Shown piece by piece: positions 9,371 to 63,944 of a DNA stretch of 64,000 nt; within the stretch, counting starts at the first letter, position 1, and the number at the start of each line of letters is the position of its first letter. The stretch spans positions 139,996,001 to 140,060,000 of the forward strand of contig OX597815.1 in NCBI GenBank assembly GCA_951406725.2, written 5' to 3'. The translations under genes and the position numbers were made by a program. Under the pieces are notes generated by a model. That model searched no databases and was not told the DNA's origin. It saw nothing but the letters and a program-made list of their open reading frames with translations. This DNA comes from Octopus vulgaris. Taxonomy: Eukaryota.

Positions 9371-9572
9371 GCAGCACGGAATTTTGTCAGTGAACAGGTC
9401 GCGGTTTGAAAGCGACGAAAATATTTTCACAAATTAAATTTTAATGTTGAAGTGAATCTAACGGGTTTTGTGTTTCTTTAATGGCTTATAAACACTTTCC
9501 GCGCTGCAATTGTTTTCGTTCCAGCACGCGGTCTCAGATCAGGTCACTTGCTATGCAAGTACACCTCCGTAA
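9371..9572 (+). mobile_element. Short non-coding Penelope-pLTR-like repeat between (TA)n arrays; homologous to 60608-60808 (minus)
   Basis: ~200 bp match to the reverse complement of 60608-60808; contains a hammerhead-like motif. Confidence 0.75.
9383..9433 (+). ncRNA. Type I hammerhead-like motif with GUGAACA (G3/C8) core, copy 1
   Basis: tttgtca-GTGAACA-g-gtcgc(ggtttgaaa)gcgac-GAAA-atat-TT-tcacaaa; one stem I mismatch relative to copy 2. Confidence 0.55.
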
Positions 9573-9977
9573 TACATACATATATATATATATATATATA
9601 CATACATACACACACACACACACACACATATACATATACACACACAAGCGCGCGCACACACACGCACACATATATGTAGTATACGTGTGCATAATAATGT
9701 GTAGTATATTATATATGCATATATATGTATACATATACATGTATACATATATTATTCCAAAAAATATGTAACTCCTTATTTGGACGCATGGTCTTTTGAC
9801 CACTTAGGGATAAACAGGGGAGATATTTATTTAGATATGGTAGGGAGGGAGTTAACAGTAAAGTTACGCACTTAAGTCTTAGTTTTCAATTGCATTTCGT
9901 GAATATAAAGAACTAATATTATGATAGAGAAGAAAAAGCGCAAGGTAATAAATTCAATTAAATTTTTTTTTACTTAT

Positions 9978-10072
9978 AATCCACCGATGAGTACAAAAAG
10001 ACATTATATGACAATAAATATGCATCTATCTTTTATATCATGGTCTTTTTGACAGAAACAGCTGTCTAGGTT
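9978..10072 (+). ncRNA. Degenerate type I hammerhead motif with long stem II and palindromic stem III
   Basis: aatcca-CCGATGA-(gtacaaaaagac...gtctttttgaca)-GAAAC-agct-GTC-taggtt; core has U4>C. Confidence 0.6.
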
Positions 10073-10344
10073 AATTGAATAAATGAAAACTCCCATCATT
10101 TACATCAAAATTTGCTTCATTTCATTTTATTTGATGACATTTATTGAACTCCACTTAATGATTTAATTCTTATAATGATCGTTTACTTATGCATGTGTAT
10201 ATACATACATACACACACACACACACATACACACACACACACGCGCACACACACACACACACACACACACACACACACACACACACACACACACACACAC
10301 ACACACACACACACACACACACACACACACACACACACACACAT

Positions 10345-10572
10345 ATATCGTCCGTTTTTCCGTCCTTTTTTCTCATACATTCGATCCTTTTTCCAAGGAA
10401 TCTAATGTTCTTCGCTTAGTTTTTCCTTGGGGCTGGCCAGATTGGAGCAATCTCAAGATTAATCAGCCGAAATTGCGATCCGGTTCTTGACTGAAGATTA
10501 AAGGATTGGAATGACCCGTCCGTGTTTTTTGTATCGTCTATTTGGATGTTTTGCGTTCTTGACCCATTTTGT
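10345..10572. repeat. Dispersed ~230-bp repeat between microsatellites (second partial copy at 27261-27385), possibly a pLTR
   Basis: Shared AATCAGCCGAAATT..GATCCGGTTCTTGACTGAAGATT..CCCGTCCGTGTTTTTTGTATCGTCT. Confidence 0.7.
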
Positions 10573-11259
10573 GTATATATATATGTATATATATATATAT
10601 GTACAGAAAGAGAGAGAGAGAGAGAGAGAGAGAGAAAGAGAGAGAGAGAGAGAGAGAGAGAGAGAGAGAGAGAGAGAGATGAAGGCAGAAAGGCCGATAG
10701 GTAGATAGATAGATAAATAAATAAATAGATAGACGTAGCAATATAGTAATCATATTAGCACGTGAAACCGTTAGCTAATGACATATACAGGATTCTGACA
10801 GTATGATGTGTCTCGGTACAGGCAACCGTGGGAGGAGCTGAGGAGAGAAAGTCTCATTTGCTATTCAAGCACAACACTTCTCTCTAGCTGTTCCCGATAG
10901 TAATCATTAGGGACCTTCAGTCCATGTCCTTTGGTCGTTGATAACTTGCGATTTTGATAAAACTTCATGTGAAATTCCCCAATTTTGAAATAAGCAGAAA
11001 CCGAATTTAAGTTGCAGAACATGTTGCAAATTCACCGGTGTCACCCATACTTTTGTCAAATTCCTCATCAGACTCAATAAGACTCATGTTTAAAGTTGCT
11101 TTCCTTGTATGTGCAGCATTGCGTCCTCGTATAGTTTTCAGTTCCCGAACTGAGCATATCCCAGATTTGTGAAATAAAATGATACGTAGGTTCTGGAGAA
11201 GTGACTGAGTATAATACCTCTTTAGCGTTCAGATCATTCTGCTAAATGTTATGCTTATT

Positions 11260-60860: not shown

Positions 60861-61722
60861 AATGTAAATGTTTCGCCTATATTCCATGTGCTGGAATATA
60901 TAAATATACTTTATCGAGTAGCGCAAATGTCTGTATGAATATAGGAACAACAAACATCTTGGATCACTGATTTGCGCATGGAAAGGATTCTGAGGACCAG
61001 GCATTTTCATCCGAGGGTAATATTCCCTCGTTACGTGTTCTTAGTTACAAGATCCACCATAGAATATATTCTCGTCTATCTCTAAATACCTGAGGTATTC
61101 CTTGTTGGATATCGTAGAAATAATCAGGCTGTTAACAGAGATATCAATAGAGACAGCTTGTATCCAGGAATATTTATTTTGGTTAGTCTTTGTTTCTTTT
61201 TTCTTTAAGAATGTCATCATCAAATCAAAGCTTTTCTTTATATATTCCAAGTTTTTCACATATTTCTTCTGATCGTCCACGACCAAGGTATACCATGAGG
61301 TCAAACATATACAGTTCATATTTCATCAGCAAAATGATTAAGATTCACTACTAGTATGAGCAAGAGAGAAAGAGAAAGAGAGAGAGAGAGAGAGAGAGAG
61401 AGAGAGAGAGAGAGAGAGAGAGAGAGAGAGAGAGTGTGTGTGTGTGGTGTGTGTACCTCGTTGAAATATACCTCTGCGTTGGGGTAAATTTCAGTGAGAT
61501 ACATTCTCCTAGGTTTTCAAAGGAGACACATTCTCTTAGGTTTTCAGAGGAGGACATAACTTATTGATTAATTTCAGAATGGTTTTCCATAAGGAAACAG
61601 GATTGTTTTTGGCTTTGATGGGATTGAGTGACTGAGTGGATATAGACATCATAAAAACATAATAGATACGGACACGTCAAGTTGACTGGTACGTCACAGT
61701 AAATTTGACACTTCTCTTAGTG

Positions 61723-61944
61723 TACGAGGGGTGCTGAAAAGTTCCCACCTTTAGATGAAAGAAAATACAGGAGGATCAGTTAATTATGATTTTTATTCAC
61801 TAAATTCTCTTCCTCAGATTCGCACACTTATTGTAGCAATTCTACAGTTTTTCAAAGCCCTGTAAAAGATCTCAGAAGTTTGTGCCTCCAACAAGGCCTT
61901 TCGCGACACCCTTAAAGCTAGGAACTTTTCAGCACCTGCTCGTA
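61723..61944. mobile_element. Mariner-type MITE
   Basis: TA-CGAGGGGTGCTGAAAAGTTCC ... GGAACTTTTCAGCACCTGCTCG-TA. Confidence 0.85.
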
Positions 61945-63107
61945 GATTTACATCACTTCCTCGTAGAGTCATATCACTTCTTCGTAGAGTCACACCATTT
62001 TTAAAGTCGTTACTTTAAAAGTGTTTCAAAATTACATTATTTTACTATTTCGACTGAGACATACCTACGTTTATCAGGAGAGCAAGAGAGTATATATATA
62101 TCATCATCTTAACCTGGCTTCGGGTATCACGATTCAGGAAAGCAACTGTCAATGTGTATTGCAGGCTAGAAGTATATAAACACGCATTGTACATGTGTGT
62201 GTGTTTGTGTGTGTGTGTGTGTGTGTGTGTGTGTGTGTGTGTGTGTGTGTGTGTGTGTGTGTGTGTGTGTGTGTGTGTGTGTGTATGTGTGTGTGCGTGT
62301 GCGTGTGTGTGTGTTTGTGTGTGTGTGTGTATTTAAACCAGCAGAAGTTACAAACTGATTCAAGAGCCGAGAGTTTTGTGCATTGGCACTTATAGATTAT
62401 ATCTGTAGAGGGAGAGAATGAGAGTGTATGTAGAACACGTAGATAAGAGAGAGAACACTTATACATAGGGGAAGTGTGAGGCAGTATTTATAGACACAGA
62501 CATATGGACACAAAACTTTGATATGAATGAAGAAAAAACAAAAAGTTTCTAAATTTTTCACTGTGATAAGAAATATAGTGAGTAGCGAGAAGTTTGTGAC
62601 AAGAACATTGATCTTGTAATCTGCAGCATCCAGAGAAAACATCAGTGAATTATTATCTTTCTTAGAGACATTCTATTGGAAAAGTAATATCTAGTCTCGT
62701 CCTTTCAAAGAGCTGTTTCAACGGAAATATTAAAGAAATATCTTTTAAAACCTCCAGTTAAAACTTCTAACAGATGTAAACCCAGATCTGCAGTAGTTTC
62801 CCGAGATAGAGAAGAAAAATGTGTTGTGTTGTAGAAGTAAGAAAAGGAAAGTATTGACCGTGAACTGGAATAAAGCTGAAGGGTTCTATATCATCTGGGT
62901 ATTTTTAGTAGGAAATATTAATGCATTGGTGAATATACAGGGTCAAAATAATCGAGTTGTTTTTGCTTGCCGCTCGGCCAGCATTAAGACAGCGAATTGG
63001 CAGAGTCGTTAGAACAAGCGTTGGAGAGAATATCTCGTAGTGTTTATTCCGACTCTCTGCAGTCAGAGCTAAAATCCTGCTGAGAGCAATTTTGCTTTTG
63101 CTCTTTT

Positions 63108-63552
63108 CATTAAGCCCTTCGCTCCCGATGGAGCATAGCCCATCGAACACTTTTCTCTACTTTTCTTGACGCTGTCTTTCCTTTCTGTTTCTTTCCAGTT
63201 GGACCCCTGCTTTCCCAGCTCCGCCTCAACATCCCTTCTCCAGCTATTTTTAGAGCGTCCTCTCTTCCATCGCCCCTGTGAGTTTTAGGTCGTATGTCTC
63301 CCTCGGAGAATGTCTTCCTCTGTCTGGTCTTGTTGGTTTTAAATTATCGATGCTTCTGTAACGATATTGTTTTCCTAGATAGGTATATTGGCCCCATGCA
63401 AATCCATTTTTACCTTTGGGAAGAGCCGACCCACATTAGTCTGGCCTCCAACCTTTGACCTGTCCAGCATGGAAGGCTTTACATGGAGCTTGCACTCCGC
63501 TGACAAAGCTCCCAGGGGTATGAGGCACACAAACTACGACACAGCAACAAGA
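63108..63552 (-). mobile_element. Internally deleted RTE element (5' UTR-like part joined to the ORF 3' end)
   Basis: Minus strand NSQGRWKRGRSKNSWRRDVEAEL..NW..VFDGLCS (RTE C-terminus); 63450-63552 ACCTTTGACCTGTCCAGCATGG..AGCTCCCAGGG..GAGGCACACAA resembles the reverse complement of RTE 5' UTRs. Confidence 0.65.
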
Positions 63553-63745
63553 ACTGAATCGTATAGTTTGATCTTTACGGGTTTGATAAATTGAGTTCTA
63601 ATTCAGGGTAGTTTATTGACTGGCCTGTTAGAAGATTCTAACTGTAACATCTGCAACAAGTTGACAGCCTTTCCTTCATTATTGCAAAGAGGGAAGACTT
63701 GTATTCATAAGGAATGGTCAGTCTTATAAAAAAAAATACAAACCA

Positions 63746-63944
63746 AATTTTGTGCATTATTTACATTATTTACATTCGACGGATATTTGTCCTCATCTTG
63801 TTTGTTGTTAACACAACGTTTCGGCTGATATACCCTCAGCCAAAACGTTGTGTTAACAACAAACAAGATGAGGACAAATATCCGTCGAATGTAAATATTG
63901 TAAATAATGTACAAAATTCTTCATCTCTTAAATATAGAACTGTA
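63746..63944. mobile_element. 83-bp-arm hairpin with unduplicated tail; pLTR fold-back remnant
   Basis: Arms 63746-63828 / 63836-63918 (3 mismatches), loop TATACCC, tail 63919-63944; arms carry cagcc-GAAACGTT-gtgt. Confidence 0.8.

Follow-up and report, generated by a model that had tools for sequence, protein, structure and literature searches.

Four fold-back loci in a stretch of Octopus vulgaris DNA are very probably insertions of the Penelope-like element (PLE) type that belong to several unrelated families (probability about 0.9), and we consider their shape better explained than not by priming at both ends of a broken target with subsequent joining of two truncated cDNAs (about 0.6). 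The stretch, here called the window, comprises 64,000 nucleotides (assembly GCA_951406725.2, contig OX597815.1, positions 139,996,001 to 140,060,000 of the forward strand); it has 36% G+C, about one quarter of it is masked as microsatellite, and all positions given below count from its first letter. At each of the four loci two copies of the same 3′ end stand head to head and a single tail is present. A preliminary description, made from the letters alone, had noticed this plan in three families without sequence kinship, and this is borne out: families A and C, as well as B and C, share only chance matches of 9–13 nt (E 0.2–0.7), and no match between A and B is listed. The same description attributed the insertions to PLEs with type I hammerhead ribozyme motifs and to several coexisting unrelated families, which agrees with our data.

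The coordinates of all features are collected in Table 1. The two arms of the long family A locus (A-long) align with 2696 matches and 10 mismatches and enclose 1580 nt; a tail of 67 nt is found on the right arm only, and (TA)n lies on both sides of the locus. A short locus of the same family (A-short) consists of a perfect 26-bp arm and a second arm with a 63-nt tail, and its stretch 55838–55971 is 99% identical to 45136–45270 of A-long, the tail boundary recurring at the two loci within 4 nt. The family B fold-back (60609–60857) has a perfect 50-bp arm at 60807–60856 and a 60-nt tail, and it is bounded by a target duplication of 12 bp, whose copies at 60597 and 60858 are the only occurrences of this sequence in the window. 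In family C the arms (63746–63827 and 63837–63918) measure 82 bp and are 96% alike; no second copy of the family is present in the window, and the 26–30 nt after 63918 are probably its tail. Second copies confirm the short one-end tail for A (two loci) and B, and for C it is assigned by analogy. A-long and C bear the tail on their shorter arm, A-short and B on their longer one.

A minimal type I hammerhead was taken to consist of stem I, an N3-U-G-A-N-N8-A core in which positions 3 and 8 pair, stem II, GAAA and UH. A relaxed type I descriptor, the use of which the preliminary description had recommended for the whole genome, gave four matches in the window (38304 and 60792 on the minus strand, 45142 and 55844 on the plus strand), compared with a mean of 0.13 per window in 30 block-wise dinucleotide shuffles. 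The full motif is present in all three copies of family A and in one of two copies of family B, and core and stems are complete at 4 of the 8 motif sites examined. Family C retains stem II, GAAA and helix III and has lost the CUGANGA half. The solo units that had been reported fared unevenly: the one at 9383 is a family B copy with a broken stem I (89.5% identity over 200 nt to the other B copy of the window), those near 30000 and 57660 form a family of their own (D) with two core mismatches each, and the one at 9978 finds no support. This last unit is missed by the descriptor at every stringency, lacks a GAAA within 45 nt and has no second copy in the window. Helix III is palindromic over 10–12 nt in B and over 6 nt in A, C and the second D copy, which could allow dimers. 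Rfam lists no hammerhead model among 150 of its 444 window matches, nearly all of them microsatellite-driven microRNA entries, and when Rfam was directed at A and B specifically, no hammerhead model matched at E ≤ 10; both searches are uninformative for minimal motifs. Folding z-scores of the isolated, unjoined motifs are weak (A 0.28; B −1.72 and −0.47; D 0.13 and 0.53), and folding energy was therefore left out as support.

As a new shared design the common plan finds no support. It is the published structure of endonuclease-positive (EN+) PLE insertions and belongs to ordinary PLE biology. In the sources cited here, each of which is drawn on in part, an inverted 5′-truncated copy and a 30–40-bp tail at one end are typical of PLEs (PMC8557442), head-to-head inverted PLE repeats with palindromes at the junction are described (PMC3846280), and thousands of solo minimal hammerheads, as well as opposite-strand pairs 100–700 bp apart, are reported from metazoan PLEs (PMC4209133). 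The complex insertions of EN+ PLEs, as covered, share with our loci the head-to-head copy, the tail at one end, the optional target duplication, palindromes at some junctions and microsatellite targets. They differ in tail length (30–40 nt in print, 60–67 nt in A and B) and in size, since several of our units measure just 150–250 nt. Dispersed solo motifs and opposite-strand pairs are likewise common to the minimal type I PLE hammerheads (PMC4209133) and the units of the window. As architecture, the four loci only show that this genome is densely covered with PLE stubs.

Family A has a coding parent within the window. The long locus (38243–45270) holds the remnant of a PLE reading frame, which the preliminary description did not mention and which has 6584 relatives at E ≤ 0.001. 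Compared to a relative of 713 aa, it is 50% identical over 127 aa and 36% identical over 223 aa; the reverse transcriptase (RT) thumb aligns to residues 366–493 and the endonuclease part to residues 493–710 of that protein, and hence the GIY-YIG domain is C-terminal to the RT. The full-length relatives P0009 and P0037 carry DKT and RW(K/R), and the corresponding N-terminal part is truncated in the window. There is no CCHH in the frame; the CxCx5C linker, as well as CxxC and CxH around conserved E and N, were read from translation and alignment. Pfam names neither the window fragments nor three full-length relatives. One of 15 relative loci fetched (L007) carries an inverted hammerhead arm ahead of a truncated open reading frame (ORF) and a hammerhead behind it, beside (TA)n; the other 14, several of which stop short of the 3′ end, gave no descriptor match. 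A-long is a young, 5′-truncated coding PLE whose own 3′ end is repeated in inverted orientation. Because A-short is a 99%-identical stub of that 3′ end, family A provides no separate mini-element.

Hydra-clade PLEs combine an RT with a C-terminal GIY-YIG domain, CxCx5C, CxxC/CxH around E and N, a (TA)n target and a hammerhead near the 3′ end (PMC8557442). Family A, whose RT core is absent from the window, appears by its sequence to have the motifs, the target and the hammerhead layout of this clade. In comparison with the clade and with Hydra-1_Obim of Octopus bimaculoides, as covered, it agrees in domain order, linker, CxxC/CxH, (TA)n, the CUGAAGA core and a hammerhead whose helix III is near the 3′ end, and the thumb region of Hydra-1_Obim is clearly alike when judged by eye. 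However, the hammerhead stems differ from those of Hydra-1_Obim, and the 12–13-nt motifs of A, B, C and D are absent from the supplement of PMC8557442 as covered; for these two reasons we regard A as a different family. It also has more than 3 kb of mostly microsatellite-like DNA from ORF to hammerhead, whereas whole Hydra elements are generally below 3 kb. About 3 kb of such DNA (38450–41400) is copied into both arms of A-long and represents either a native 3′ region or captured host DNA; captured spacers of 0.9–1.5 kb are known for Pen1_Av (PMC3846280). A second, decayed RT-thumb/endonuclease relative lies in three pieces at 22130–23102 on the minus strand (28–41% identity to P0009), with no hammerhead match nearby.

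For the origin of the one-tailed arms we infer two-ended priming and end joining. In this scheme, a PLE enzyme would cut both DNA strands at the target, and the RNA's 3′ end would be copied onto both broken ends, an outer start site yielding the tailed arm and an inner one the tailless arm. The two incomplete cDNAs would then be joined by end joining, with microhomology being optional. Hammerhead stems are inverted complements which could be used at the join, as stem I in A-short and stem II in C, and would be equally optional; the hammerhead would be carried along with the 3′ end and need no role in insertion. The features to be accommodated are two arms with a single tail, the fact that either arm may be the longer one, the 12-bp duplication at B, the (TA)n targets at A and the coding parent of A. 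The tail may lie on the shorter arm (A-long, C) or on the longer arm (A-short, B) because each end would be primed from a different start site. In the available part of PMC11167929, a PLE protein acts in vitro on both strands, which it cuts and extends, two start sites bound the tail, a dimer is predicted, and insertion takes place without hammerhead cleavage.

Several points weigh against this scheme. Two-ended priming is our own addition and is absent from PMC11167929 as covered; the authors of PMC3846280 favour self-priming at palindromes, and endonuclease resolution is favoured for the tail in PMC8557442. The tails of A and B exceed the published range, as mentioned above. Self-priming predicts junctions on hammerhead stems, and two of the four in the window are placed exactly there: that of A-short on stem I (6 nt) and that of C on stem II (5–6 nt), while that of B has a 3-nt overlap off the stems. 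In family A, stem I is one of six inverted complements of at least 6 nt in 44998–45203. Finally, the junction statistics given below stem from 15 of 53 joints, from collapsed contigs aligned to a non-majority copy, and from family B only.

Snap-back self-priming is the main competitor, and we consider it unlikely. Here a single cDNA (or an antisense RNA) would fold back on an internal hairpin, for instance one of the hammerhead stems, and copy itself, and an endonuclease would trim the second arm at the tail boundary. The stem-centred junctions of A-short and C would fit, as would the palindromes at inverted junctions that were taken as self-priming in PMC3846280 (as covered). However, 1580 nt separate the arms of A-long, with no hairpin seen at the join, the B junction of the window overlaps by no more than 3 nt, and copying of a longer arm cannot supply the tail that is found on a shorter second arm in A-long and C. 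Additional evidence comes from contigs of four public sequencing runs, which were aligned to the solo B copy (9369–9572), a copy that differs from the family majority, in order to map joints. Among the 15 joints listed (9 opposite-strand, 6 skips), seven of the opposite-strand joints have no microhomology, one has 2 nt of it and one has 6 nt; the last would suit a snap-back, whereas none of the nine is in the register of stem I or stem II. One to five extra letters are present in 8 of the 12 insert-bearing B joints listed. For this one family and partial list, the mostly overlap-free joints therefore favour end joining over an obligatory snap-back. The preliminary description had called for mapping inversion breakpoints relative to stems and cleavage site; the stems account for two window junctions and for none of these nine, and the proposition that junctions always lie on stems was rejected.

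The same joints offer a weak lead on cleavage. Of the 19 B joints counted, 10 have one end at 9369–9376; with these 5′-boundary ends set aside, 7 of 28 joint ends fall within 9425–9434, three at the predicted cut and four at the foot of stem I. The count omits the six skip joints and two of the 12 insert joints (one skip, one tandem-like), the other ten being of unstated kind. The probability of such a cluster is 0.001 for a fixed interval and 0.06 for a movable one, with the interval picked after seeing the data and detection uneven along the reference; for opposite-strand joints alone, 3 of 13 ends lie in this range (scan P 0.84). The inverted arm of A-short also begins exactly at the predicted cut site. 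In the parts of the literature cited here, in vivo cutting by PLE hammerheads is called unclear (PMC8557442), and no reads ending at the hammerhead site were found (PMC11167929). Thousands of arm junctions per family represent a dataset on both the origin of one-tailed inverted arms and hammerhead cutting in vivo.

In the preliminary description, the loci were assigned to a retrozyme-like population of ribozyme-bearing, mostly non-coding mini-elements, which would be moved by PLE proteins and might each be self-cleaving or dsRNA-forming. We regard a reading as ribozyme-driven units that would self-cleave, circularise and be moved in trans as distinctly unlikely. Metazoan non-LTR (long terminal repeat) retrozymes, as covered, are likewise short and non-coding, carry type I hammerheads, derive from PLE ends and occur also as solo monomers, but they are defined by head-to-tail repeats and circular RNAs, whereas the units of the window are solo or head to head (PMC7761336; bioRxiv 10.64898/2026.07.22.740005). 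A masked self-comparison of the window revealed no head-to-tail hammerhead arrays, and one tandem-like joint occurs among the B joints listed. Membership in the retrozymes thus fails on tandem organisation within the window, where only half of the motif sites have full core and stems. The absence of protein coding that characterizes retrozymes does not apply to family A; no linked ORF was seen in the window for B, C and D. A-short is a stub of a coding element, and C and D lack a full core. What survives of the idea concerns family B alone, a unit of about 200 nt.

Family B is abundant: three DNA runs from two organisms contain 11900, 7620 and 6543 contig pieces of it, and the summed depth over its motif in run X1 is 2–3 million versus about 50 for single contigs, which is not a copy number per se. 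A copy number of the order of 10^4 is likely. A further run, X18, which may be RNA, has 408 pieces, and these are not counted as expression. Contigs that leave the unit before 9369–9370 (181 in X1) are heterogeneous, with an agreement of 0.42–0.43 and a median length of 46–47 nt, compared with an agreement of 0.71–0.82 at the loose ends at 9473 and 9481; the wider ranges are 0.41–0.44 just upstream of 9369 and 0.61–0.82 at 9473–9481. Copies depart from the common sequence within about 30 nt upstream of 9369. This suggests a fairly sharp 5′ boundary just upstream of stem I, of the kind that a short non-autonomous element would have, and is in line with short mini-elements. However, the loose-end counts favour contigs that reach unique flanks, so the sharpness may be overstated, and a plurality of contigs has in common an upstream sequence whose end resembles a 3′ splice site, which would suit a longer PLE. 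We see about even odds for a short non-autonomous derivative and for a stub of an unseen long PLE. The letters that several runs share upstream of 9369, of low agreement, resemble a 3′ splice site at their end, where an ATG follows, and part of them is complementary to the hammerhead core; one may speculate that this is an intron end which masks the core in unspliced RNA.

The hammerhead of family B has a G3-C8 pair in place of C3-G8 in both window copies and in one contig insert. A second insert of the table was dropped as a G3-C8 copy, being probably the family's own upstream sequence. In the variant tallies of three DNA runs, all G-to-C and C-to-G sites are accounted for; the table has no entry before 9400, where the 3-8 pair lies, and the tallies are compatible with G3-C8 without proving it. 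The family majority restores a 7-bp stem I (G at 9428 in 94–99% of depth), and the stem I variant 9429 A to G, which keeps pairing, accounts for 17–32% of depth in three DNA runs. Stems and GAAA are almost free of common variants save at CpG sites, the changes in stem II being of CpG type; this near-invariance and the pairing-keeping variant speak for mini-elements. Two-sided covariation is not seen in the 40 of 77 variant rows shown. No match to the family B pattern was obtained in metagenome, prokaryote-genome and viral collections. With the hammerheads of PMC4209133 (as covered) the motif shares an extra base after A9, a G10.1-C11.1 pair and a palindromic helix III. It differs at the 3-8 pair, where the natural covariation described in the available parts of PMC4209133 and PMC3088659 is U3-A8. 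In the literature as partially covered, G3-C8 was found only as an engineered, partly active variant, and a natural case may be described elsewhere. Hence, the G3-C8 hammerhead of family B may be new, with cleavage predicted from its sequence. A compensatory swap of the catalytic pair at high copy number would, if true, point to a motif under selection, which common CUGANGA descriptors miss. It would be a long shot to go further and regard B as a short, non-autonomous passenger of PLEs, present in tens of thousands of copies, with a natural, active G3-C8 hammerhead and fold-back junctions that record its cutting in vivo, the short arm tending to end where the RNA is cut or where stem I has its foot; if true, the genome would thereby bear witness to folding and cleavage of PLE hammerheads in vivo.

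Fold-back DNA transposons resembling miniature inverted-repeat transposable elements (MITEs), or assembly artefacts, would suit the long near-perfect inverted repeats and the 12-bp target duplication at B, but are highly improbable given the unequal arms of which one is tailed, the solo copy without inverted ends at 9369, the recurrent tail boundary of family A, the 10 substitutions and several repeat lengths by which the arms of A-long differ, and the appearance of fold-back joints in contigs of independent runs.

Table 1. Features of the fold-back loci and solo hammerhead-like units, in window coordinates.
Feature	Position	Strand	Remarks
Tailed solo copy of family B, flanked by TA-rich repeats	9369..9572	+	G3-C8 core at 9390, 9395; stem I broken at 9428 by a family-rare change
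Family D solo copy	29965..30119	+	4-bp stem II, GAAA, CG helix III; 2 core mismatches including A6
A-long, tailless 3′ end of coding copy, ~2.7 kb	38243..40928	-	mostly (TA/TG/CA)-type low-complexity DNA, hammerhead terminus; 80% purine/pyrimidine alternation
Family A hammerhead, type I	38260..38310	-	6-bp stem I, CUGAAGA core, 3-bp stem II with unpaired U on each side, 4-bp helix III
3′ non-coding region of coding copy, single-copy part	40929..41468	-	
5′-truncated PLE reading frame	41469..42508	-	RT thumb, CxCx5C linker, GIY-YIG-type endonuclease with CxxC and CxH; frame interrupted once near 42134-42137
Inverted second copy of same 3′ end, more strongly 5′-truncated	42509..45203	+	
Family A hammerhead in native context	45136..45186	+	predicted cut after 45180
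A-long tail, 67 nt, then (TA)n	45204..45270	+	
A-short tailless inverted arm, 26 nt	55818..55843	-	begins at first base past predicted cut; 6 nt of stem I common to both arms
A-short hammerhead (55838-55888) and 63-nt tail, (TA)n flanks	55838..55971	+	
Family D second solo copy	57571..57721	-	81% to first copy over 157 columns; 2 core mismatches including A6
Family B target-site duplication, left 12-bp copy	60597..60608	.	
Family B long arm including 60-nt tail 60609-60668	60609..60809	-	
Family B minimal hammerhead	60749..60799	-	G3-C8 core pair, 7-bp stem I, 5-bp stem II, 10-nt palindromic helix III
Shorter arm of the family B fold-back, inverted and tailless	60807..60857	+	junction overlap 3 nt, off hammerhead stems
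Family B target-site duplication, right 12-bp copy	60858..60869	.	
Family C fold-back, 82-bp arms	63746..63918	.	centre on stem II of half hammerhead (5-6 nt shared); CUGANGA half absent
Family C probable tail	63919..63945	+	by analogy

The window contains further repeats. Old imperfect palindromes at 28136–28345, 28476–28888 and 27769–27808 (arms 66–85% alike, no hammerhead match) may be MITE-like or decayed fold-backs, and an inverted pair of about 125 nt, 86% alike and 1.4 kb apart, is found at 3029–3154 and 4521–4643. Imperfect palindromes also occur near PLE-related ORFs in contigs of other organisms (L005, 1459–1648; L014, 235–2188). Fragments of a non-LTR-type reverse transcriptase are present at 34176–35678 (Pfam RVT_1, E 2.5e-05, under the cut-off). 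Two dispersed repeat families, both abundant, 71–92% alike, probably of the short interspersed element (SINE) type and without hammerhead match, map to 3277–3501, 25153–25543, 32188–32413, 32994–33187, 48105–48329 and 52446–52675 (family 1) and to 14275–14659, 18046–18385, 21084–21357, 33997–34146, 36155–36297, 51204–51579 and 53899–54361 (family 2).

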